Positions 5,389 through 57,067 of a DNA stretch of 57,070 bases are shown piece after piece. Under the pieces are notes generated by a model. The model was given only the letters and a program-made list of their open reading frames with translations, did not search any database and was not told the DNA's origin. Source of the stretch: a virus (Duplodnaviria > Caudoviricetes); the IMG/VR virus record IMGVR_UViG_3300006919_008385, positions 1 to 57,070 of that record. One strand, written 5' to 3'. The translations under genes were made by a program, and so were the position numbers. Numbering within the stretch: the first letter of the stretch is position 1; each line of letters starts with the position of its first letter.

Positions 5389-5835
5389 TTAATCCCAACT
5401 CTGGGTTTGATCTATTGTGGTAATTCTGTCTGAGCCTGTGTCTGCCACAGACTGATATGTTTTTCTATCCAGCACATACATAAATGCTTTGCCTTGATTT
5501 GTAGGTACTATTGTTCTCTGATAAAAGTTTGTTGCTGGTTGGCCTGTGTAGCCTTCCATTCTATCTAAATCAGACAAAGTTTCTGAATCAACTTCCCAAA
5601 CTTCGCCCTGTATGTAATGTTCGCCCTGTTCAAATACTCCAGGAAATGCTCCTAGATCTACCAATTCATAATCAGGATATGTTGTTTTTGCTTTGCCAAC
5701 AATAGTGGCACCTTCAAACTGATGTAATCCTCTGATATCGCCGCCACTTTTTAGTGTGCCATAGACAAAAACTTTGTATGTTTTATCATCACTAGTAAAG
5801 TATTCTGCTTTATTATTGTCTTTATCTTCAGGCAT
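5389..5835 (-). CDS. gamma-glutamylcyclotransferase (AIG2-like) family protein
   Basis: VFVYGTLK, GEVWEV, LDRMEG motifs. Confidence 0.85.
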   Translation of the reverse strand: MPEDKDNNKAEYFTSDDKTYKVFVYGTLKSGGDIRGLHQFEGATIVGKAKTTYPDYELVDLGAFPGVFEQGEHYIQGEVWEVDSETLSDLDRMEGYTGQPATNFYQRTIVPTNQGKAFMYVLDRKTYQSVADTGSDRITTIDQTQSWD

Positions 5836-6043
5836 CTAACTTTTCCTCAAGTGCTTTGATCCTGGCATTCATTGTGCTAATCAGTCTGCTTGTATCTGCA
5901 TCTAACGGTTTGGCTGTACTTGCCACGGCCATTGCCTCAAGGTCGTCAATTTTAGCATTTAAGTTACCAATTACTCTGTTTTTTTCATTAATGACTTCAA
6001 TTAGTTCTGCTTTTGTCATCTGTGTTGTACTTTTAACTGCCAT
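5828..6043 (-). CDS. small coiled-coil protein
   Basis: 71 aa heptad pattern, AGGA RBS, upstream promoter. Confidence 0.6.
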   Translation of the reverse strand: MAVKSTTQMTKAELIEVINEKNRVIGNLNAKIDDLEAMAVASTAKPLDADTSRLISTMNARIKALEEKLDA

Positions 6044-6066
6044 AATTATTCCTATAATATTCTGCT

Positions 6067-6094
6067 ATTGTAACTTAAATTTGTTTAATGTCAA
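6067..6094 (-). promoter_or_regulatory. sigma70-type early promoter
   Basis: TTGACA-N16-TACAAT. Confidence 0.65.
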
Positions 6095-6104
6095 CCTTTT
6101 TTTC

Positions 6105-6281
6105 TTAAATCTGGCCTAGTTTACTGTGAGCTTGTTGTAAAATAATTTGTTTTAATGTATCTTTACAGGAGCCACATTGTGATGTTACGCCTGTTTCATT
6201 AATAAATTTTTCTAAACTTTTACTCTTTATTTCAGATCTAAATTTACTTTCAGATATGTTTTTACAAATACATAATATCAT
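6105..6281 (-). CDS. bfd: Bfd-like [2Fe-2S] ferredoxin (58 aa; not in ORF track)
   Basis: Hand translation MILCICKNISESKFRSEIKSKSLEKFINETGVTSQCGSCKDTLKQIILQQAHSKLGQI: CxC...CGxC Bfd signature; ATGA overlap with upstream gene. Confidence 0.8.
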   Translation of the reverse strand: MILCICKNISESKFRSEIKSKSLEKFINETGVTSQCGSCKDTLKQIILQQAHSKLGQI

Positions 6282-6478
6282 GATTTACTCCCAACATGAG
6301 CCCAAAGTCTTTCATGTCCAATATACAGTAAAAACTTAATTACCATATCAACTACTACAACACCAACCGCCGCCTTCATGGGTAATCCAAATGCCAAGGC
6401 AATAACACCTGATGTCAAAGATGCTATTATTCTCCATGTAACACTTTTGGCTACGCTTCTTGATATACTTTCTGCCAT
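6278..6478 (-). CDS. DUF2061-like small membrane protein
   Basis: RSVAKSVTWRIIAS...LYIGHERLW signature. Confidence 0.8.
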   Translation of the reverse strand: MAESISRSVAKSVTWRIIASLTSGVIALAFGLPMKAAVGVVVVDMVIKFLLYIGHERLWAHVGSKS

Positions 6479-6834
6479 ATTTTTTCTATAGTTTTAAATA
6501 ATATTAGATAAAATGCTGTTGCAGTAAATGTACTAGCATCAAACTCTAATGCCGCCATAGTAAATGGATTGCCATGCGACAAGTTTGCCAATATGTGATA
6601 GCCAAACATACTCACAAAGTATGCTTTAAACATATTGAGCTTTTTACCTATAAATGTAGCAAATACTACACTAGCAAAATAACCTAATTGTGCTATATCT
6701 AGTCCTACACTAACAAGATAATACACAGTTAATGCCATTAATGGCAAACCATATTGCATTTTGCTGTTAGAACTTAATAATGGCATAAACAATGCCAATG
6801 CTAAAAAGGGTTGAAAGTTAATTATTTCTATCAT
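6451..6834 (-). CDS. membrane protein
   Basis: 127 aa, multiple TM segments, PFLALALF. Confidence 0.6.
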   Translation of the reverse strand: MIEIINFQPFLALALFMPLLSSNSKMQYGLPLMALTVYYLVSVGLDIAQLGYFASVVFATFIGKKLNMFKAYFVSMFGYHILANLSHGNPFTMAALEFDASTFTATAFYLILFKTIEKIWQKVYQEA

Positions 6835-7267
6835 TTTCTATTTCATATACTCTTTTTCTTAAACTGGTACTACTAAAACTGTGATCTCTGCCATTGTAGA
6901 CCATCTTTATATTTCTGTCTTTACAAATGCTTTTACCAGTAAAAGATTTTGATTTATATTCTTCTCCAATTATTCTTATATTTATAGGAAGTGTTAATAA
7001 CAAGTCCTCTAGGTCTCTTTCTGTAGCATACATCACAATTTCGTCAATATATTTTACTGCCGCAAGTTGTATTTGTCTCTCAACTACACTTTGTATTGGA
7101 GCATTTTTATCTGGTCTGTCTATTGTTGGATCTGTCTGCAGACCCACAATCAGATAATCACAATGTCGTTTTGCTTCTTCTAACATTGTAATGTGTCCTG
7201 CATGAAGCAGATCAAATGTACTACAGGTAAATCCTATAGTGCCACAATCTTTATAATCTAATCTCAA
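6818..7267 (-). CDS. glycerol-3-phosphate cytidylyltransferase-like protein (TagD family)
   Basis: TFDLLHAGH (HxGH) and RDHSFSSTSLR motifs; TTG start. Confidence 0.85.
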   Translation of the reverse strand: MRLDYKDCGTIGFTCSTFDLLHAGHITMLEEAKRHCDYLIVGLQTDPTIDRPDKNAPIQSVVERQIQLAAVKYIDEIVMYATERDLEDLLLTLPINIRIIGEEYKSKSFTGKSICKDRNIKMVYNGRDHSFSSTSLRKRVYEIENDRNN

Positions 7268-7350
7268 TGTTTTGGCCTATTGTTTCTGTCATTCCAGATC
7301 ATATAGGCCATCATTACTATTACAACAATTAAAACGTAATCAAAAACCAT
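7264..7350 (-). CDS. 28-aa single-TM peptide (not in ORF track)
   Basis: MVFDYVLIVVIVMMAYMIWNDRNNRPKH; fills the gap, TGA overlaps next TTG start. Confidence 0.5.
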   Translation of the reverse strand: MVFDYVLIVVIVMMAYMIWNDRNNRPKH

Positions 7351-8089
7351 CTGTAAAATCCAAATACTGCTCTATTTCGCTAGTATCTGTATTTACAATT
7401 ACGCCAAATAATTTACCACCTTTTCCGGCACCACAATCTAAGAATGTAGTGAGCCCTCCTAATTCACTTTCATAAGTTTCAGGATGGTCTTGGAAGTTGT
7501 CAAAATCAGGAATACCAACCATAGGTCTTGGATCATGTCCTACAAATAAATGTACATCTTTTGGGATATATTTTGTCCAGTCGTATGTTCTAATCCAATA
7601 GTCTTGTCCTTTGTGATGATATTGTGGGGCATCAAAGTCTACAGTACCCCATTTAAATACATCTCTTCTTTTTTTGTGCATGTCATCACCAAACTTCCAA
7701 AAGTCAGGATGAGCTCCAGCATGAGCAATATAAATTTTATTGTTTATATTGATATAATCTGTACAATAAGTACATATTTCCATAAAGTTTTTAGCAAACT
7801 CTGGGTTTTCTGTCATCTGATCTATTGTTGCTTGGTTAGGCGGGCCTAATTCTACATTGTTACCAAGTAGATGCCTGTATATTTTCCATTCGTGGTTGCC
7901 CCAAGTAATTCTTGCATGTCCTTTTTTAAGTAGGTATAAAAATTGAGAGCAGACTTCTGCACCATCAGGTCCATTGTCTATAAGGTCCCCAACACAAATA
8001 ATAGGAATATTATTTTGTATAGAATAGTTTACAGCCTTGGTAAATGGAATACCATCTGCGTGAACATCTCCTATTATTAATTGTTTCAT
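7340..8089 (-). CDS. calcineurin-like metallophosphoesterase
   Basis: GDVHA, GDLIDNG, GNHE, HAG, GH motifs. Confidence 0.85.
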   Translation of the reverse strand: MKQLIIGDVHADGIPFTKAVNYSIQNNIPIICVGDLIDNGPDGAEVCSQFLYLLKKGHARITWGNHEWKIYRHLLGNNVELGPPNQATIDQMTENPEFAKNFMEICTYCTDYININNKIYIAHAGAHPDFWKFGDDMHKKRRDVFKWGTVDFDAPQYHHKGQDYWIRTYDWTKYIPKDVHLFVGHDPRPMVGIPDFDNFQDHPETYESELGGLTTFLDCGAGKGGKLFGVIVNTDTSEIEQYLDFTDGF

Positions 8090-8113
8090 ACCTACCTACT
8101 AATTTTAAATTAT

Positions 8114-8141
8114 ATTATAGCAAAAAATGTAAAAATGTCAA
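8114..8141 (-). promoter_or_regulatory. sigma70-type early promoter
   Basis: TTGACA-N16-TATAAT with extended TG. Confidence 0.75.
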
Positions 8142-8681
8142 CTAAGAAAGGTTGTTGACTAACACATCATAGTAATAATCTAAGTAACTTGAGGGCAGTT
8201 CTTTAAATTTAGATCTAGAAAATCTAGTATAAATGCCTTCTATTGTGGTTATCATAATTTTGCAATGGTCTTTTGTAAACCCATAACTGCCAAACTCATT
8301 TTCTATGTTCATGAACAGCAGATTAATTTTATCAGATATTTCTTTTTCGTCTATAGACAAACACTCTCTGTTTAAAAATCTTGCAAACCCTGGATTACTT
8401 TCTACAAATAATACTAAAAAATAATACAGAGTTTTTGCTTTTTCCAAATTGTTTACAGGTTTGTTACGGACTTCATATATTTTGTCTATAATAGTCTGCT
8501 CTATAAACTTAAACAATGCCTGAAATATCTCATTTTTACCTTTGTAATGTTTATAGATAGCAGGCTCTGTAATGTCGCTTTTAACTGCTAACACTTTGGT
8601 TGTAATGTTTGGTAAGTCATCTTCTTGTAATAAGTTTACAAGAGATTCTAGTATCATATGTTTTCTATTAACGGTTGCCAT
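8142..8681 (-). CDS. slmA: nucleoid occlusion factor SlmA homolog (TetR family)
   Basis: Colinear similarity to SlmA: NRxxxILxSL, ITTxxLA, ExAxYxHxxxK, FIE, ExNPG, INxLFxxIE, EGxxxRFxRSxFK. Confidence 0.8.
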   Translation of the reverse strand: MATVNRKHMILESLVNLLQEDDLPNITTKVLAVKSDITEPAIYKHYKGKNEIFQALFKFIEQTIIDKIYEVRNKPVNNLEKAKTLYYFLVLFVESNPGFARFLNRECLSIDEKEISDKINLLFMNIENEFGSYGFTKDHCKIMITTIEGIYTRFSRSKFKELPSSYLDYYYDVLVNNLS

Positions 8682-19792: not shown

Positions 19793-20964
19793 AATGAATC
19801 TGATAATTTAAATATATCTTCTTTACTTGTATAGATACCAGGACTTATTCTTAAAACTCCTTTGCCACCACTTACTTTATTTACAATAGGATGAGCACAA
19901 AGTTTCCCCACTCTTACAGCAATGTTGTCTAATCCCAAAAAGGCACTAACATCACTTGGGTGATATCCAGTACAGGTAAATGTATAAACATATCTGCCAT
20001 TTTGTCTGTAATCTTTGTATATTAAATCCAGTCCTTTAATGTTAAAAATATCTGAATCACTCATAGCAAAATCTAAACCAGTAAAGTGTTCTTTAAAGTT
20101 TTCATATTTTAAATAATTCATCCATTCGGCCGCTCTGCCTAATCCTAATATACCTGCTAAGTTAGGTGTGCCAACTTCGTGTTTTGTAGGACCATCGTAA
20201 AACTCTACATTCCCTTTTAAATCATAATGTACTACGGAGCCTCCTCCTAATCTTACAGAACGATGTCTTTCAAAAGGCAGTCTACTATATAAAACTCCTA
20301 CACCTGTTGGACCATACATTTTATGACCACTAAAAACAGCATAGTCATATGTATAACTATCGAACTCATGTGTACCTATTGTTTGACAAGCATCTATAAC
20401 TACCTTTATTCCTTGGTTGTGTGCCATTTTACATAACTTTTTGCAACTTGATGGTATGCCAGTTACATTACTATGACTGTGAATACTTAATAGAGCATAA
20501 GGATATTTTTCAAACACTTTATTTGCTTCATCTAAATTTATTTTACCTGAGTCTGTAATAGGAAGTACAACCAATCTACCGTTTTCTGTTGTTCTATTTT
20601 GTGCTATCCAAGGCAATATATTTGCTGTATGTTCTGCTTCGGTAATTATTACTACAGGCATGTCTTTATACCAGTCTGCTACTATGTTAAGACCTTCTGT
20701 TGCACCTGATGTAAACATAATTTGATCAGGCTTTGCTTTAATTAGTTTGGCAAATTCTTCTCTAGCAGTTTCTATATCAGCACTTACCTTTTGGCTAATA
20801 GGAAAATCTCCTCTGTTTGCATTACATCTTTCTTCTTCATAATACTGGTTCATACGATCTAAAACACTTTGATGCGTTTGCGTACTGGCGGCACTATCCA
20901 AATAAACTAATTCTGGATTGTTTACTAGTGTTGGAAACTCTTCTTTTATGTTGTTATAAAGCAT
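19765..20964 (-). CDS. sufS: cysteine desulfurase SufS
   Basis: YLDSAASTQ, EHTANILPW, SGHKMYGPTG (PLP Lys), RVGKLCAHP. Confidence 0.9.
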   Translation of the reverse strand: MLYNNIKEEFPTLVNNPELVYLDSAASTQTHQSVLDRMNQYYEEERCNANRGDFPISQKVSADIETAREEFAKLIKAKPDQIMFTSGATEGLNIVADWYKDMPVVIITEAEHTANILPWIAQNRTTENGRLVVLPITDSGKINLDEANKVFEKYPYALLSIHSHSNVTGIPSSCKKLCKMAHNQGIKVVIDACQTIGTHEFDSYTYDYAVFSGHKMYGPTGVGVLYSRLPFERHRSVRLGGGSVVHYDLKGNVEFYDGPTKHEVGTPNLAGILGLGRAAEWMNYLKYENFKEHFTGLDFAMSDSDIFNIKGLDLIYKDYRQNGRYVYTFTCTGYHPSDVSAFLGLDNIAVRVGKLCAHPIVNKVSGGKGVLRISPGIYTSKEDIFKLSDSLCKAIQKLV

Positions 20965-22160
20965 CTTTTTAATAATTCCTCAGACTCAAAGTCGTTTATG
21001 CCTCTACTCTCCAAGTAGTATAGCATGTCTTTATCCAAATTACTTATAGTACATCCATGAGTACATATAACTTCTTTGGTGTTAATGTCTAGTTGAGGCT
21101 CAGTAATCATTGTATTCTTATTGCTTAACATTAAATTTTTATTCTCTAAATGTGCCTCTGTGTTTTCTGCTTCTTTGTTTATGTTAATTTTACCAATAAA
21201 ACTTGAATGTGAATTATCATCTCCTATAGTTCTTACGTCAACAATACTGCTACTGTTAGGACTCAAATGATTTACATTAACAGTCATATTATTAGTATAA
21301 TTTTCAAATAAATTAAAATTTCCTATTACATTTGTATCACAATCGTTATAAATGTCAAACTCCATATTATCCTGATTATGTTTACTGCCTTCTCCAAATA
21401 CTTCCACTGTGACTTTACTGCCAGGAAACTGTATAAATTTACTATCTATAACATTACATGCTCTGTCTTTATTGTTGTAATCATGTTTTCTGTTAAGGTT
21501 CAACTTAACATTGTCTCTTACAATATATGTTATGTTATATAATTTTACACCATCTTTATTTTCAAAAAATTCATCTAATGTCAATTTTGTATTTTTACCT
21601 ATATCTATTATAGCAAACACACAATTAACATCTTTGTCTTTATAACTATCAGCATAACAAATACTTTGAGCAAAATTTTTATTGGCATAATATTTTATGC
21701 CTACTGGGCCTGTACTATTAATTACAGCATAATCTGACAGTCTGTTATTTGGTTTAAAATATGGCTCATATAATTTTATTTTGCTGTACTTGGAATACAA
21801 ATCAAATATTTTAAAATAATCATATTGATAAGGCCTATACATACTGGTACCATTGTGTACATCAGATATAAATCCATCATCTATGACTACATCAAATTGT
21901 TCTGTATAATTAGATAACCAGTCTTCCTTTTTATTTGAGCTAGAGTTAGCAATTAAATCAACATCTCTAAGAGTTTTTAGATTCATGTTTTTATAAAAAT
22001 TATTTTTTAAAGGAGATCCTTTTTGTACTAAACTGTTAAAAAATCCGTCTACTAAGTTAGGTAACACATTATTTGCTACAGTATTAGATACCATATTATT
22101 TCGTAAACCAAAGTTCACTAGGTTATGCAACTCATCTATATTGTATGTAACTTTAGACAT
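20946..22160 (-). CDS. sufD: Fe-S assembly protein SufD (divergent N-terminus)
   Basis: PQLDINTKEVICTHGCTIS...LYYLESRGI; likely start MSKV at 22160. Confidence 0.85.
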   Translation of the reverse strand: MSKVTYNIDELHNLVNFGLRNNMVSNTVANNVLPNLVDGFFNSLVQKGSPLKNNFYKNMNLKTLRDVDLIANSSSNKKEDWLSNYTEQFDVVIDDGFISDVHNGTSMYRPYQYDYFKIFDLYSKYSKIKLYEPYFKPNNRLSDYAVINSTGPVGIKYYANKNFAQSICYADSYKDKDVNCVFAIIDIGKNTKLTLDEFFENKDGVKLYNITYIVRDNVKLNLNRKHDYNNKDRACNVIDSKFIQFPGSKVTVEVFGEGSKHNQDNMEFDIYNDCDTNVIGNFNLFENYTNNMTVNVNHLSPNSSSIVDVRTIGDDNSHSSFIGKININKEAENTEAHLENKNLMLSNKNTMITEPQLDINTKEVICTHGCTISNLDKDMLYYLESRGINDFESEELLKRCFITT

Positions 22161-22869
22161 ATTCTTCAAAGCCATTAACCAACACATCATTTGCTAGTGT
22201 AATGTCACCTCTAACAACTTTATCCTTACCTAAAATTGTTACTGTATCTACATTAAGGGAATTTATTAATTGTGAATAGTGACTTATAATTAAAACTATT
22301 TTGTCTGGTTTTTGTGAGAATACATTTAAAAACTTTATTAAATGTTTTATAGCATCTACATCTAATCCACTGTCTGGCTCATCTAATATTACACATTTAG
22401 GATCTAACAATTCCATTTGTATTAACTCATTCTTTTTCTTCTCGCCGCCACTTGCTTCTACATTCAATTGCTTTTTATCCCAATTATCAGGCAGTTTAAA
22501 TGTTTCTGCTAATTGTTTAAACTCATTTAAATTTTCTGTTAGCCTCTTTGCATCATCTCTTCTAGATAGTACCTGATGTAATAATTGAAAGTTACTTAAA
22601 CCTTCAATGGGTGTAGGTTGCTGAAAGCCCAAAAACAATCCTGCCTGAGCTCTTTCAAATGTAGGCATAGCCAACAAGTCTTTACCATAAAACTCTACAG
22701 CACCTTCAGTAATGTAATTGGGATTTCCCATAAGAGCATGAGCAAATGTACTTTTGCCTACTCCATTAGGACCCATTATGATATGAACACCAGGACCAAA
22801 CTCCAGATGTAAATCATTTAAAACTATTTGATCTTCAACTTTTACTGAAAACTCTTGTGTAACTATCAT
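22153..22869 (-). CDS. sufC: Fe-S assembly ATPase SufC
   Basis: GPNGVGKST, SGGEKKKNE, LDEPDSGLDVDA. Confidence 0.92.
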   Translation of the reverse strand: MIVTQEFSVKVEDQIVLNDLHLEFGPGVHIIMGPNGVGKSTFAHALMGNPNYITEGAVEFYGKDLLAMPTFERAQAGLFLGFQQPTPIEGLSNFQLLHQVLSRRDDAKRLTENLNEFKQLAETFKLPDNWDKKQLNVEASGGEKKKNELIQMELLDPKCVILDEPDSGLDVDAIKHLIKFLNVFSQKPDKIVLIISHYSQLINSLNVDTVTILGKDKVVRGDITLANDVLVNGFEEYV

Positions 22870-24314
22870 TATCCTACTGCTCCTTCTAGTGTAACACTCA
22901 GCAATTTATTTGCCTCTGCGGCAAATTCCAAAGGAAGTTTTTGAAAAACATCCTTACAAAATCCATTTACAACACAATTAACTGCGTTCTCTTCGTCTAA
23001 ACCTCTGCTTTGTAAATAATACAAAGCCTCTTCTGACAGTTTACCTGTACTGGCTTCATGCTCTACTATACTGCTGTTATTATACTGCATAACCACAGGT
23101 AATGTCAATGCCTTACTGTTATCTAACATTAAACTATCACATTGTGTATAGTTTCTACTGTTATGAGCATTTTTATTGACCCTTACCATTCCTCTGTATG
23201 TGTTACTACTGTCTCCAAAACTTATGCCTTTGGATATAATGGTGCTCTTGGTATTTTTACCAACATGCAACATCTTTGTTCCTGTGTCTGCCATTTGTTT
23301 GCCTTTGGTTACAGCAACACTATAAAACTCACCAACACTATTATCGCCTCGTAATATACAACTTGGATATTTCCAAGTAACGGCACTACCTGTTTCAACC
23401 TGTGTCCAACTAATCTTACTGCTTTCACCTTTACATAATCCTCTCTTAGTTACAAAATTTAATACGCCACCAACACCATTTTCATCTCCTGGGTACCAGT
23501 TTTGTACTGTACTATATTTAATCTCTGCCCTGTCATGTGCTACCAGCTCTACTACAGCCGCGTGTAGTGTGTTCTCATCATATGCTGGAGCAGTACAACC
23601 TTCTAAGTAACTGACATAACTGTCCGCATCTGCTATAATCAGTGTTCTTTCAAACTGTCCTGTATTACGAGCATTGATGCGGAAGTATGTGTTTAATTCC
23701 ATTGGGCATTTAACTCCCTTAGGAATATAACAAAAGGTGCCGTCCGTAAAGACGGCACTATTTAGGCAAGCGAAGTAATTATCCTTGGCTGGGATAATAC
23801 TACCTAAATACTCTTTTACGAGTTCGGAATGTTCTTGTATGGCTTCACTTATACTGCAAAATATAATGCCATGTTTCTTTAATTCTTCTTGGAATGTTGT
23901 GGCAATACTAACACTATCAAATACTGCGTCAATGGCCACTGTGGGTATTTTGTTTTCTGCTTCTATACCAAGTAGAGAATCTCTTTCGTGTAGAGGGACA
24001 CCTAACTTTTCAAATGTATCTAAGATCTCTTGTGGAATGTCTTCTTTGTTTCTAAACTTGGGTGCTGAATAATAACTTAATGCTTGGTAATCTATAGGTG
24101 CATAGTTTACATGAGCCCATGTAGGTTCTTTTATTTTTTGTAGATGTTCAAATGCTTTTAGTCTAAACTCAGTTACCCATTCAGGTTCGTTTTTTATTGC
24201 ACTAAGTTTTCTTACTACCTCTTCTGTAAGTCCAGGTTCAAAGTCCTCAGAGTCTACGACTGTTTCGAATCCAGCAGTATATTGATTGGATGTTATTTTA
24301 CTATAGTCAGTCAA
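22869..24314 (-). CDS. sufB: Fe-S assembly scaffold SufB
   Basis: [48 protein letters not shown]. Confidence 0.97.
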
Positions 24315-24606
24315 TTTTCTCTACCATAATAGTTAATGGGTGTCCATTGTTCCTACTTATAGCAACGGCTTCTGCTTTCTTTTGCTCAGCAAGTTCAAAG
24401 TTATATGTACCTGCTATGCCTTTTCCTTTTTCATGGATTAACATTGTAATATCCTTTGCTTGTTCTAAGTTTCTATTAAAAACTTCTATCAGCAACTGAA
24501 TTACAAAATCCATAGGAGTAAAGTCGTCGTTAAGTAGCACCACATTATATCTATTAGGATAGGTGACGTCAGTCTGTGTAATTGTATCAGATTGTGTTTG
24601 TGCCAT
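24307..24606 (-). CDS. clpS: N-end-rule adaptor ClpS
   Basis: [30 protein letters not shown]. Confidence 0.93.
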
Positions 24607-24812
24607 TATTTTTGATGTTTAGGTAGTTTAGCCTCCACAAACATTTCATGTTTGCGTTTAACAGGATTATATTTTTTCATTTTAAGTTTTCTATTTTCCT
24701 GTATAAGAGTCTTAGTCTTAACAGCAGTATAATGATAGGTATGACTGTCTCTGGTCTCACCTTCTGGTATCATGTATACTATTGTTTTCTTTTTATTACT
24801 TTTGCTTGCCAT
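24606..24812 (-). CDS. rpmG: 50S ribosomal protein L33 (Zn-free type)
   Basis: HYTAVK...KLKMKKYNPVKRKHEMFVEAK, matching L33 C-terminal signature. Confidence 0.75.
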   Translation of the reverse strand: MASKSNKKKTIVYMIPEGETRDSHTYHYTAVKTKTLIQENRKLKMKKYNPVKRKHEMFVEAKLPKHQK

Positions 24813-24821
24813 TTTATAAGT

Positions 24822-24845
24822 GGAGAGGACTTATTTGTCCTCTCC
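24822..24845 (-). terminator. hairpin between hsp20 and rpmG
   Basis: GGAGAGGAC-N6-GTCCTCTCC; late motif TATAAATA at 24850-24857 just upstream. Confidence 0.5.
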
Positions 24846-24864
24846 CACATATTTATAAACCAGA

Positions 24865-25317
24865 TTAGCCAATTTTAATCTTTTGTGGTTTAAGTGCGTC
24901 AGGAACATTTCTGAACAGTTCTACTTTTAGTAAACCGTCCTCTAGTTTTGCACTTTTAACCTCCACATACTCAGCAAGTTTAAAACTTCTTACAAAGTCT
25001 CTTTCTGCAATACCTTTATGTAAAAACTCAACGTCGTCCATTGCTCCGGACTCGTCTGCTTTAATGGTACCAGTAATAAGTAAGTTACCGTCTTCTAACT
25101 CAATATCTATTTCGGACTTTTTAAATCCTGCAATAGCCAATGTAATTGAATACAGATCATCACCGTCTTTACTGATGTTGTATGGTGGATAGCCTTGTGA
25201 ATTTGTTGCAGAATTCATCTGAGTTTCGAACTCATTAAAAAGTCTGTCAAATCCGACTGTGGCTCTATATAGTGGGTTTAGTGTATCAGAAGTGATACGA
25301 AATTGTTTGCTTACCAT
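24865..25317 (-). CDS. small heat-shock protein Hsp20 (IbpA-like)
   Basis: VGFDRLF, YPPYNI, LAIAGF, FLHKGIAERDF, LEDGLL; start MVSK at 25317 with AGGAG RBS. Confidence 0.95.
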   Translation of the reverse strand: MVSKQFRITSDTLNPLYRATVGFDRLFNEFETQMNSATNSQGYPPYNISKDGDDLYSITLAIAGFKKSEIDIELEDGNLLITGTIKADESGAMDDVEFLHKGIAERDFVRSFKLAEYVEVKSAKLEDGLLKVELFRNVPDALKPQKIKIG

Positions 25318-25325
25318 GATATTAT

Positions 25326-25342
25326 CTCCTTTAAAAAGCAAG
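25326..25342 (-). promoter_or_regulatory. ROSE-like RNA thermometer hairpin
   Basis: CUUGCU pairs with SD AGGAG leaving a bulged G; U(U/C)GCU is the ROSE hallmark in sHsp 5'UTRs. Confidence 0.65.
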
Positions 25343-25385
25343 TTAATTTATTTTTACTAGTTCTTTTTAAACCCTATTGGCGAAT

Positions 25386-25765
25386 AAAAAGATCGCATTG
25401 TGAGGTCGTTTCCGTTTGTATGTGTCTGTATCTCCTCACGACACTTGGCAAACTTCTTGGTTTCCTTTGATGTTGCCATCTTAGGTCCTTTGTTGGTTGC
25501 CCCAAATAAAAAACATGTCAACTGTTAAACCCGTGCTCTTTTGAAGACTATTTCCATATAGCAATAGTCCGAGCACTTTTGAAGATTTAACCTTCTATGC
25601 CTTTCTAATCTTGGAACTAATGTTCCTAATATTACCTTTCGTTTGGCTATTGTCCCTAGTAGGTCACCTTCACTTACGATCTGGTTTCCCTTAGTTCTTT
25701 TTACCTGTCCAGGTAATAATGCATATCTAACTTTGCAGTAGACTCCATTCTCTTACGATCCTTTT
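25386..25765 (-). ncRNA. putative large structured non-coding RNA (~380 nt), family unrecognised
   Basis: No ORF >=60 aa; 12-bp closing helix, GNRA-capped stems, long symmetric hairpin, pseudoknot; upstream promoters. Confidence 0.65.
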
Positions 25766-25792
25766 GCCCTTGCATTATTTTTTATGCAATTT

Positions 25793-25842
25793 TATTTATC
25801 TTTTCACTATACTTATATAGTGTTTTTTGGATAAATTTCAAG
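25793..25842 (-). promoter_or_regulatory. tandem promoters upstream of ncRNA/hsp20 (CTTGAAA-N16-TATATA, RpoH-like; late GATAAATA)
   Basis: CTTGAAA at 25836-25842, CACTATAT -10-like region, GATAAATA at 25793-25800. Confidence 0.5.
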
Positions 25843-25861
25843 TATTTTTTGCAAAAAAGTG

Positions 25862-26290
25862 CTATTTTCCTCTAAAATCCTCATTCAAAGTAGTTTTTAT
25901 AGCATGACAAACTTTACATAGTGTTTTATGATTACTTGGATCATTATTATAATGATTACCATCTATGTGATCTACATCTAATAATGTTCTAACAAGTCTG
26001 TTTACTACAATAGGATCTTTTACACTTTTAACTGTAGGGTGCTCTAGTGGATCAAACCCACATTCCTCACAACAATCACCTCTGCTAAAACTATGCTCTT
26101 TAGTTCCTTTTGCAAGTCCACCATATTCAACTAGATCCTTTTGATGCTGTCTGCAATACTTGTCATGTCCAGGACCTTCAAATAGTGTTAGTATTTTATC
26201 ACAACCTTCAACACTACATCTGCTTTTCCTAGCCTTAAGTAATAGTTTGCCTGTTTTAGGCTTATCTATATTTGCATCTCTGAAGCTCAT
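25862..26290 (-). CDS. HNH endonuclease with Zn fingers
   Basis: CEECG...DVDHIDGNHYNNDPSN...LCKVCH; N-terminal CxxxxC...CxxH. Confidence 0.85.
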   Translation of the reverse strand: MSFRDANIDKPKTGKLLLKARKSRCSVEGCDKILTLFEGPGHDKYCRQHQKDLVEYGGLAKGTKEHSFSRGDCCEECGFDPLEHPTVKSVKDPIVVNRLVRTLLDVDHIDGNHYNNDPSNHKTLCKVCHAIKTTLNEDFRGK

Positions 26291-27492
26291 GATAATTCCT
26301 CTTCAGTAAATCTGTAGTTCATATTGCCACCAAATTTTGGCACAGCATAACTAAATCCTGCTAGAGTAACTGCTTGGCATAACCAGGTAGGTGCTACAAG
26401 TGTTTGGTTACATCTTTGGGATATTGCATCTGAATTTCCTTGTCTGTTCCTCCAAGATGTATAAGCATCACTAACCTTTTTGTGCTTACTGTTTTTACTT
26501 TGCTGTCTGTGTTTCCAAGTATTACCAGTAACTTTATCTAAAACATCAACAAACTGTTGTATATAATCTTCGTTGACATCTATACCTTGCTCTTCACATG
26601 CTCTAAATATATGAGACATATTGTCTATTTCCAAAGGTTCTACAGGTAAGTCTGGATTGGACAAACTGTGATACTTAAACACTTTTGCTAAAGTTTCAAC
26701 ACTAAATTTATCTAACCTTTTAGGAAATATTTCTGAAGGACGTGATATAGCACCTGCCATATTCTCATCACCAAACTTTGAATGTGTAAAGAACATATCA
26801 TTTTCTTCTAAAGCAGTCTGTATAGCCTCCATTCTTTGGTGCCAAGGATTTTCACTACCATTATGCCTTACAGCATATACATATTGATCATAGTGATCAA
26901 TCTTATCTAGTTCTTTACTCATGCTACCGTCATTAAATCCTATAAATCTGTCTCTAATTTTAGCAACATCTTTACCTGGATAGATTGCAGTAGGCATCTT
27001 AAATTTTTGTGCGTCTTTCATTGAGAGACCAAATCCATATATAGCAACTATAAGTAATAGTAATGCTGTATGCTGACCGTCCCATACAATTAATTGCTCT
27101 TCGCCCTCAACATTATCTTTATATGTTCTAATAGGGTTTACAAAGAAAGGATCAAATTTACCAAATAGTTCACACAACCATTGTGCATCTGGTTCTCTTT
27201 GTATAATTGCATTAATAACCAAAGTATCAGGAGCAACTGTTCTGCCTTCGTCTCCCAATCCTACCATGTCTTTCATCATGGCTTTAAATGTTTTATATTG
27301 AGGATACCTGATTTTAAACTCTTCACCATATGCCTCAAATACTTCTGCAATATCAGGATCTTCATCTATAATTGCTTGGTACCTTTCCCATAAGGTTAAG
27401 TAGGTATCTTTATCTGATTGGAACCTGGAGTTCCTTTTGGTGGCGTGACTTACGCCTATTGTGCCTATTGGCATTGTAGTTTTCATACTCAT
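26287..27492 (-). CDS. ParB/DGQH(R/T)-motif domain protein
   Basis: IQREPD...VWDGQHT...RFIGFN, ParB/Srx-like fold motifs. Confidence 0.6.
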   Translation of the reverse strand: MSMKTTMPIGTIGVSHATKRNSRFQSDKDTYLTLWERYQAIIDEDPDIAEVFEAYGEEFKIRYPQYKTFKAMMKDMVGLGDEGRTVAPDTLVINAIIQREPDAQWLCELFGKFDPFFVNPIRTYKDNVEGEEQLIVWDGQHTALLLLIVAIYGFGLSMKDAQKFKMPTAIYPGKDVAKIRDRFIGFNDGSMSKELDKIDHYDQYVYAVRHNGSENPWHQRMEAIQTALEENDMFFTHSKFGDENMAGAISRPSEIFPKRLDKFSVETLAKVFKYHSLSNPDLPVEPLEIDNMSHIFRACEEQGIDVNEDYIQQFVDVLDKVTGNTWKHRQQSKNSKHKKVSDAYTSWRNRQGNSDAISQRCNQTLVAPTWLCQAVTLAGFSYAVPKFGGNMNYRFTEEELS

Positions 27493-56835: not shown

Positions 56836-56912
56836 TGGTGGGTCTTGCAGGATTCGAACTTGCGACCCCCTCGGTGTAAACGAGGTGCTCTAACCAACTG
56901 AGCTAAAGACCC
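56836..56912 (-). tRNA. tRNA-Val(TAC)
   Basis: GGGTCTTTAGCTCAGTTGG...CCTCG-TTTACAC-CGAGG...GTTCGAATC...ACCA. Confidence 0.95.
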
Positions 56913-56914
56913 AC

Positions 56915-56992
56915 TGGCGATCTGGAAGGGACTCGAACCCTCGACCTCCGCCGTGACAGGGCGGCGTTCTAACCAATCTGAACTACCAGACC
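56915..56992 (-). tRNA. tRNA-Asp(GTC)
   Basis: CCGCC-CTGTCAC-GGCGG anticodon arm, GTTCGAGTC, CCA end. Confidence 0.95.
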
Positions 56993-57067
56993 TGGTACCG
57001 CATAGGAGGATCGAACTCCTGTTGCCGAGATGAAAACCCGGTGTCCTAACCACTAGACGAATGCGGC
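56993..57067 (-). tRNA. tRNA-Glu(TTC)
   Basis: CCGGG-TTTTCAT-CTCGG anticodon arm, GTTCGATCC, CCA end; abuts tRNA-Asp with no spacer. Confidence 0.93.

Follow-up and report, generated by a model that had tools for sequence, protein, structure and literature searches.

What does a two-fold symmetric RNA arm with two identical asymmetric loops contribute to the genome of an uncultured phage? The question is raised by a locus in IMG/VR virus record IMGVR_UViG_3300006919_008385 (Duplodnaviria; Caudoviricetes; estimated completeness 35%), whose positions 1 to 57,070 constitute the 57,070-nt stretch of DNA analyzed here (hereafter, the window). The arm is encoded on the minus strand at 25591-25524, within a 520-nt gap devoid of open-reading frames (ORF) that has an HNH-like gene upstream and hsp20, encoding a small heat-shock protein, downstream. 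Our comparative analysis reveals that uncultured aquatic T4-like phages possess a genuine RNA building block, portable and strongly conserved, to which the arm belongs and which is referred to below as the module. The function that we favor for it, tentatively and with a dimeric protein-binding site as its chief rival, is that of a self-contained, rigid structural brace made of two T-loop folds, which would shape and protect RNA ends and arms.

Structure of the twin-loop arm

Read directly from the sequence, the arm comprises three helices (P1, P2 and P3) and two UUCAAAA loops, each opposite a single G, arranged from 5′ to 3′ as follows.

25591-25584 with 25531-25524, minus strand: helix P1, GUUAAAUC paired with GGUUUAAC
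25583-25577, minus strand: T-loop-like 5′ loop UUCAAAA, facing the single G at 25532
25576-25571 with 25538-25533, minus strand: helix P2, GUGCUC/GAGCAC
25570, minus strand: single G opposite the 3′ loop
25569-25563 with 25552-25546, minus strand: helix P3, GACUAUU/AAUAGUC
25562-25553, minus strand: 10-nt apical loop, GCUAUAUGGA
25545-25539, minus strand: T-loop-like 3′ loop UUCAAAA, facing the single G at 25570
25532, minus strand: single G opposite the 5′ loop

The sequence and pairing given for the arm in a sequence-only reading of this DNA correspond exactly to minus strand 25591-25524. The minimum free energy fold of a 76-nt piece is the arm hairpin (−22.7 kcal/mol, z = −4.84), with none of 200 shuffled sequences being as stable, and the whole 520-nt gap folds with z = −5.63. 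The 17-nt unit TCTTCAAAAGWGCWCGG (pattern UCUUCAAAAGWGCWCGG) has two matches in the window, both in the arm, where 0.01 are expected from 100 shuffles, and a covariance model of the module identifies one copy in the 57-kb window, the arm itself, at 73.4 bits. The two units form a direct repeat in which the central hexamers are not the same but each other's complement, and the hexamer order is switched in relatives (GUGCUC...GAGCAC vs GAGCAC...GUGCUC), also among the loci retrieved with Hsp20 that are described below, in agreement with the earlier assertion that the arm is not a simple duplication.

Conservation and covariation of the module

Viral loci bearing the module were compiled through several searches. 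A search with Hsp20, in which the motif was not used, led to 27 loci, most of them with a homologous RNA 5′ of hsp20; nine carry the double module, one (L007) a one-sided form and 17 neither. A scan for the exact unit yielded 101 viral stretches, mostly hsp20 5′ leaders, and a relaxed scan with the inner P2 positions left free yielded at least 119, totals built on the latter being lower bounds. The relaxed scan added the P2 forms GGGCAC/GUGCCC, GCGCGC/GCGCGC and GAGCGC/GCGCUC, each of them complementary, and a pattern with a base other than C at position 3 of the 3′ loop gave 74 matches, 11 of which are true modules. Exact-unit matches in L029, the L032-type group (GTGCAC within a gene), L073, L087 and L119 were discarded as chance or coding matches, and L131, an Alistipes tandem repeat, was excluded from the tally. 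In total, at least 117 viral loci contain two units with complementary P2 strands, representing at least 54 distinct sequences; at least nine contigs were fetched twice, so that the 117 loci amount to ~108 contigs.

The resulting consensus consists of two UUNAAAA/G asymmetric loops flanking a helix of exactly 6 bp, G-N-G-C-N′-C. Across 53 distinct sequences, 89% of cells are paired (73.8% in shuffles), changes on both sides are seen in 11 of 17 pairs (142 cells vs 48.9 in shuffles), and the covariation score of 0.433 (0.154 in shuffles) is reached by none of 500 shuffles. When the partner columns are slid, pairing falls to 26-45% and the covariation score collapses. The flanking and central helices covary as well in the first 38 sequences taken alone. 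P2 is paired in every one of the 53 sequences and always spans 6 bp, taking the forms GAGCUC/GAGCUC, GAGCAC/GUGCUC and GUGCUC/GAGCAC in addition to the three contributed by the relaxed scan; its complementarity was an acceptance criterion for 15 relaxed-scan sequences and was not imposed on the other 38. Positions 2 and 5 of P2 take A-U, U-A, C-G and G-C pairs, and positions 1, 3, 4 and 6 are always G-C, G-C, C-G and C-G. Also invariant are the pairs that border each loop (C-G below, G-C above), the UUNAAAA loop and the single opposing G, which is present in 53 of 53 sequences and retained by the one-sided variants L007, L031 and L083. Most search patterns fixed P2 positions 1 and 6, CGG and AAAAG; where a loop was left free in the scan, it read UUNAAAA in 31 of 31 loci for the 3′ loop and in 63 of 63 for the 5′ loop. 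Loop position 3 varies among the 54 distinct sequences, both in the 5′ loop (C 37, A 12, G 4, U 1) and in the 3′ loop (C 46, A 5, G 3), and P1 ranges from 6 to 12 bp. Helix covariation and conservation of both loops in homologs, which the sequence-only reading had put forward among the ways to check the arm, are both borne out.

A direct repeat of 17 bp situated beside promoters and a homing-type HNH gene, and moved between unrelated genes, could also be a DNA-level element, that is, a protein operator or a T4-type recombination or shuffling cassette with an incidental RNA hairpin. The substitution pattern renders this extremely unlikely. G-U pairs, which would be mismatches on the opposite strand, are frequent (one P3 pair is G-U in 24 of 53 sequences, one P1 pair in 11 of 53), P1 and P3 covary despite their free sequences, and the compensatory changes invert the hexamer against fixed flanks, which is natural for RNA and odd for a DNA site. 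Orientation to transcription is also constant: the UUNAAAA strand is the strand of the neighboring gene in 113 of the 117 loci listed, these being the ones with the gene inside the fetched DNA. Because of the G-U pairs and this constant orientation to the neighboring gene, selection acts on RNA, not DNA, and the arm is a functional RNA element rather than a DNA site.

Genomic contexts of the module

The module-bearing loci fall into three contexts.

Short hsp20 leaders, with the module ending 61-77 nt before the ATG: at least 34 distinct sequences in at least 81 loci
Long hsp20 leaders, as in the window: at least 11 distinct sequences in at least 23 loci
30-70 nt past the stop codon of the gp32 single-strand DNA-binding gene (PF08804, PHROG 224): at least 9 distinct sequences in at least 13 loci

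The short leaders have three hairpins, among which the module comes first, ahead of a ROSE-like part, and a promoter (CCCCTTGAAA, 13 nt, CCCTATATAAT) lies closely upstream, so that the hairpin would start within a few nt of the likely RNA start. In the gp32 context, a U-run follows P1 directly in 11 of 13 loci (12 counting the truncated L321), in terminator-like fashion. In the relatives retrieved with Hsp20 that are devoid of the double module, a different hairpin is found at its place. The arm is thus an optional peripheral element upon a conserved core, being present in 9 of 27 relatives and replaced by another hairpin elsewhere. As a separate observation, in L054, L057, L123 and L127 (e.g. 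L057:2943-3031, minus strand, and the next 25 nt) the sequence CUCUUUUGAA stands directly past the module; it is the exact complement of loop 1 and the start of P2 (UUCAAAAGAG) and could pair alternatively, opening the module.

Among bacterial genomes (185,579 species), the double pattern occurs in three stretches, two of which are unrelated tandem repeats. The sole relevant match, L132, lies on a 121-kb contig from a Sphingobacteriales metagenome bin and is an hsp20 leader of the phage type that bears the module, with the same promoter as in viral contigs; this contig is probably a phage binned with a bacterium, or else a hint of the host. Among cultured phages, neither the large RNA in which the arm lies nor a short leader has a DNA match, and two module hairpins used as queries returned chance-level short matches only, apart from a 24-nt match to a tRNA-Pro discussed below. 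The Hsp20 protein of the window shares less than 60% identity with every cultured-phage protein.

The presence of the module on two unrelated, well-expressed phage genes, together with its two-fold symmetry, its exact 6-bp spacing and the invariance of the loop bases and four P2 pairs while positions 2 and 5 vary freely, is what would be anticipated for the binding site of a homodimeric RNA-binding protein of phage or host. Each subunit would contact one UUNAAAA/G loop and half of G-N-G-C-N′-C, controlling the translation or decay of the hsp20 and gene 32 messages. E. coli IbpA reportedly represses its own mRNA through the 5′ untranslated region (UTR), and T4 gp32 is said to regulate its own message. 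We regard this main rival to the brace as unlikely, though it deserves serious weight: it comes with no candidate protein, in the gene 32 context the module is found 3′ of the gene and away from the ribosome-binding site, and in the window it lies inside an RNA that apparently ends before the hsp20 ribosome-binding site.

Comparison with T-loops and tRNA

T-loops in general feature a reverse-Hoogsteen pair between U1 and A5 and an unstacked residue 3 (PMC4810234). At the level of sequence, residues 1 and 5 are U and A in both loops of all 54 distinct modules, and residue 3 is free to vary (C, A, G or U); positions 1, 2, 4 and 5 (U, U, A, A) are invariant. Besides the U1/A5 pair, the variable position 3 and the purine at position 4, the UUNAA of the module shares with the UA_handle-type pentaloop the presence of two more nucleotides before the next helix, like tRNA residues 59-60. 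It differs in that the module loop is internal and faces a single G, whereas that of tRNA is a hairpin loop, and in having invariant A6 and A7, no requirement for C3 and a symmetric pair of loops across a 6-bp helix. A candidate for the intercalating residue of a T-loop is the opposing G, which is invariant (53 of 53 sequences). From this pattern we infer that each loop would fold as a tRNA-type T-loop. That A6 and A7 never vary and that P2 has fixed G-C pairs suggests further contacts, either with P2 or with a protein.

The likeness to T-loops advanced by the sequence-only reading therefore stands for the sequence of each loop, with its invariant U1, U2, A4 and A5 and free N3; its main idea, that the two loops form a pair docking on the tRNA elbow, finds no support. 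The module does resemble the double T-loops, arranged head-to-tail, of T-box Stem I, RNase P J11/12-J12/13 and the L1 stalk in having two T-loop-like elements about a two-fold axis, and the phage carries tRNA genes. Elbow-docking double T-loops are however characterized by the signature AGNNA...UGNNA, in which the G at position 2 forms core base triples (PMC3664808). That signature and its G2 are absent here, both loops being UUNAA in every module. Moreover, the loops lie on opposite strands with 6 bp between them, neither a specifier-like nor an NCCA-pairing element is seen, and the contexts, the leader of a heat-shock gene and the 3′ end of gene 32, provide no link to tRNA sensing. We consider elbow docking highly improbable.

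A different relationship to tRNA is intimated by one gene 32 lineage (L245:1985-2110, L244, L232, L254 and L083), in which ~29 nt before loop 1 resemble the tRNA-Pro of Vibrio phage VPp1. The resemblance covers the anticodon arm (loop UUGGGAA), the variable loop and the T-stem, with a BLAST match of 23 of 24 nt (E = 0.3) that extends by eye to ~27 of 29 nt and aligns the UUCAAAU of the tRNA beside the UUCAAAA of the module. P1 is 12 bp in this lineage and is followed by a U-run. The match hints that the module loop may have descended from a genuine T-arm, with an E-value of 0.3 in one lineage only. It would also be compatible with the module being a T-arm mimic, read by a T-arm enzyme (a pseudouridine-55 or m5U54 enzyme, RNase P or the CCA-adding enzyme) that would mark or process the RNA, a P1 of 12 bp having the length of an acceptor and T-stem stack and the loop fitting UUCRANN, which we take to be the T-loop pattern of tRNA. 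We give this proposal a small chance. The module loops are internal rather than hairpin loops closed by a 53-61 pair, C3 is invariant in tRNA and variable in the module, P1 length ranges from 6 to 12 bp across modules, and ARAGORN detects no tRNA or transfer-messenger RNA in five of five gene 32 loci, the tRNA-Pro match with its E-value of 0.3 remaining confined to that single lineage.

The large folded RNA in RNA libraries

Part of the stretch is contained in 20 public runs, of which six are RNA libraries, with freshwater, marine, estuary and salt marsh labels. Contigs from four RNA runs of four studies (X5, X7, X8 and X18) were placed on the window, and the arm is covered by contigs in all four. 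Contig depth, a single figure per contig in which organisms are added up, is no basis for ranking the parts of a gene; the summed values are as follows.

X5: 5,700-8,300 over ~25441-25782; 67 over the hsp20 part
X7: 146-213 over ~25441-25782; ~4 over the hsp20 part
X8: 297-490 over ~25441 to 25611; 6-14 over the hsp20 part

Two X5 contigs, at 25484-25567 (depth 4,222) and 25538-25736 (depth 5,498), have no differences to the window. In X7, a 312-nt piece covering 25453-25764 is joined to Illumina adapter directly after 25764, which suggests a defined RNA 5′ end at that position. No contig covers 25840-25896 in any of the four runs, 25783-25839 in X5, X7 and X8, or hsp20 in X18, which is no evidence of absence. 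Taken together, the contigs hint that a folded RNA of ~320-345 nt that includes the arm accumulates well above the hsp20 message. Its elements and those of the remaining leader are listed below.

25441-25787, minus strand: folded RNA containing the arm, approximate extent from RNA-library contigs (5′ end ~25787-25764, 3′ end ~25453-25441)
25771-25737, minus strand: hairpin unit A, with conserved GAUCGUAAG(N)GAA loop (GUAA tetraloop); stems covary by eye
25692-25658, minus strand: hairpin unit B, of the same kind as unit A; stems covary by eye
25503-25443, minus strand: 3′ domain, with helix 25501-25497 paired with 25451-25447 and an inner hairpin whose loop AUGGCAACA (25479-25471) is invariant
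25439-25400, minus strand: hairpin GUGAGG...CCUCAC with a large conserved loop; RNAalifold pairs 89-93/123-127 covary
25391-25363, minus strand: ROSE-like upstream hairpin with a bulged G (UUCGCC-NNNN-GGG); pairs covary
25343-25326, minus strand: ROSE-type hairpin formed by ACUUGCU and the ribosome-binding site AGGAG, by reading
24865-25317, minus strand: hsp20, ATG at 25317-25315 (Pfam HSP20, 1.1e-16; PHROG 432, 5.6e-37)

The ends of the folded RNA are weak hints, since the data are contigs and not reads. In the helix of the 3′ domain both sides change in five of five pairs, with none of 500 shuffles reaching its covariation score (17-sequence alignment). Position 25483, inside this domain, is a strain variant: C replaces A for most or all of the depth in X5 (4,606 of 5,065), X7 and X18, and for ~15% in X8 (70 of 474). 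A long-range closing helix between GGCAAAAGGAUCG and CGAUCUUUUU, predicted from the single-sequence fold, was dropped, as by eye it is not kept in relatives. Units A and B share a layout of AAGG(G/U), stem, AA/AA internal loop, 3-bp stem and C-G-closed GUAA loop, then CCUACU; copies of this hairpin with compensating stem differences also occur in L054, L060, L070 and others, and the unit seems to be another portable module.

The last ~80 nt before the hsp20 ATG present a ROSE-like layout, pointing to a putative thermometer of the ROSE type. A ribosome-binding site paired with U(U/C)GCU, which we take to be the ROSE-type consensus, is found directly 5′ of the small heat-shock gene; this ACUUGCU...AGGAG hairpin lies 8 nt before the hsp20 ATG and is conserved in 27 of 27 related loci, and the bulged-G hairpin is retained even in relatives without the large RNA. 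The Rfam model ROSE_3 (RF02523) gives no match in the window at E-values up to 10 and a weak one in the short-leader relative L037 (22.7 bits, against a 43-bit cut-off). As in ROSE thermometers, then, the hsp20 gene downstream of the module has a ribosome-binding site paired with UUGCU, after a bulged-G hairpin; in contrast, the Rfam model spans the last two hairpins alone, without twin UUNAAAA loops, and the module also occurs 3′ of gene 32.

The invariant loop AUGGCAACA (25471-25479) holds GGCAA, complementary to the UUGCU strand (25336-25343) that pairs with the ribosome-binding site. RNAalifold pairs GGCAA with UUGCU in each of 17 sequences; as neither of them varies, covariation is absent. 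An invariant CAAGU near GGCAA is complementary to ACUUG. These pairings could constitute an anti-anti-Shine-Dalgarno switch. On a broader interpretation, the window RNA would found a new class of abundant, modular non-coding RNAs (ncRNA) of aquatic T4-like phages, pieced together from portable parts (hairpin units with GUAA caps, the twin T-loop brace and the domain holding the invariant GGCAA loop), in which the twin T-loop would act as a tertiary lock or assembly interface and the GGCAA-UUGCU sensor would free chaperone translation in cis or in trans. We hold this interpretation to be rather improbable.

Known RNA families

At gathering score, Rfam identifies three tRNAs only in the whole window and one tRNA only in eight module-bearing loci; at E-values up to 10, region 24800-26400 has two chance-level matches located elsewhere and none on the arm. 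ROOL and GOLLD are large ornate phage-associated RNAs, which form homo-oligomers. Like these families, compared here through Rfam alone, the window RNA is a multi-arm non-coding RNA of several hundred nt, apparently abundant, in a tRNA-bearing phage; it differs in being smaller (~320-345 nt), tied to hsp20 and composed of its own repeated hairpin units, and in having no Rfam match. The parallel lends some interest to the notion that P2 pairs between molecules, so that the element would dimerize or multimerize the large RNA: 36 of 54 distinct sequences have a palindromic P2 (GAGCUC or GCGCGC), and one-sided variants keep the palindromic GAGCUC. The prospect is a slight one, given that non-palindromic complementary P2 pairs occur in both orders within a single molecule and that P3 joins the strands as a short hairpin, favoring intramolecular pairing.

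A further orphan structured RNA, manA, has been described in marine T4-like phages, in 5′ UTRs that include those of ibpA chaperone genes from T4-like cyanophages (PMC2864571). Both RNAs share their occurrence in T4-like phages before chaperone genes, but the Rfam model for manA (RF01745) matches neither the window at E-values up to 10 nor the eight module-bearing loci at gathering score. In a literature search covering phage hsp20 thermometers, UUCAAAA, T-loops and T4-like structured RNAs, no account of the module came up.

Genomic setting

Further features of the window are the following.

25842-25812, minus strand: host-type promoter-like site, CTTGAAA, 13 nt, CACTATATAAG, by reading; kept in relatives
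25799-25793, minus strand: T4-type late-promoter core ATAAATA; present 5′ of the RNA in most relatives
25862-26290, minus strand: small HNH endonuclease-like gene immediately 5′ of the RNA (PHROG matches at 1e-6, without a Pfam match)
20946-25317, minus strand: hsp20 and, downstream of it, a ClpS-like adaptor gene followed by SufB-, SufC- (ABC ATPase) and SufD-like genes
56836-57067, minus strand: three neighboring tRNA genes, Val-TAC, Asp-GTC and Glu-TTC

We assume the site at 25842-25812 to resemble the sigma-70/sigma-32 consensus; it was not listed in a sigma-70 scan of 24800-26000. ATAAATA is assigned to what is presumably the late-promoter consensus, which is quoted as TATAAAT for T4-type late promoters (PMC9004378). 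No intrinsic terminator-like site was found in 24800-26000, including the vicinity of the 3′ end of the large RNA. The relative L003 has a similar HNH-like gene at the same place, and the hsp20, ClpS-like and Suf-like genes make up a chaperone and iron-sulfur assembly cluster on a phage.

Discussion

T-loops are among the few RNA building blocks with well-understood three-dimensional behavior. If the loops of the module adopt this fold, each would contain a U1-A5 reverse-Hoogsteen pair with N3 flipped out, and the invariant cross-strand G would insert between A4 and A5, like G18 in tRNA; a G filling the A4/A5 gap would explain why the opposing G is retained in one-sided variants. In A-form geometry, loops extending from the 5′ ends of the strands of a 6-bp helix would come to lie opposite each other across the deep groove. 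The twin loops, since both leave the 5′ strand ends of such a helix, would face each other there and may pack into a single compact, rigid body. Phages would employ this body as a ready-made brace: as the first hairpin of hsp20 messages, before the ROSE-like hairpin at the ribosome-binding site; as the terminal hairpin after gene 32; and, in the window, as a peripheral arm of the folded RNA of ~320-345 nt. Its likeliest effect would be to lend RNA ends and arms shape and stability against nucleases and unfolding.

Several points weigh against the brace. The arm is dispensable in many relatives. The T-loop fold is deduced from the sequence pattern, and a plain T-loop leaves the invariant A6 and A7 unaccounted for. 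The fixed G-C pairs at positions 1, 3, 4 and 6 of P2 are equally expected from sequence-specific recognition by a protein. A protective role is itself conjectural, as contig depths cannot rank parts of a gene, and evidence for invariance that is unbiased by search patterns comes only from the 10 loci found through Hsp20 (nine plus the window) and, for the loops, also from the GAGCUC class.

Were the brace to be confirmed, a symmetric cassette of two T-loops moved between unrelated RNAs would enlarge the catalogue of modular RNA motifs, and at ~45 nt it would provide a compact target for RNA design and structure determination. The module marks two important phage messages, those of a chaperone and of the single-strand DNA-binding protein, and possibly an abundant phage RNA. 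The phages that carry it are widespread in freshwater, estuarine and marine samples, and its distribution points to post-transcriptional control, of a kind undescribed in the literature searched, in uncultured T4-like phages.

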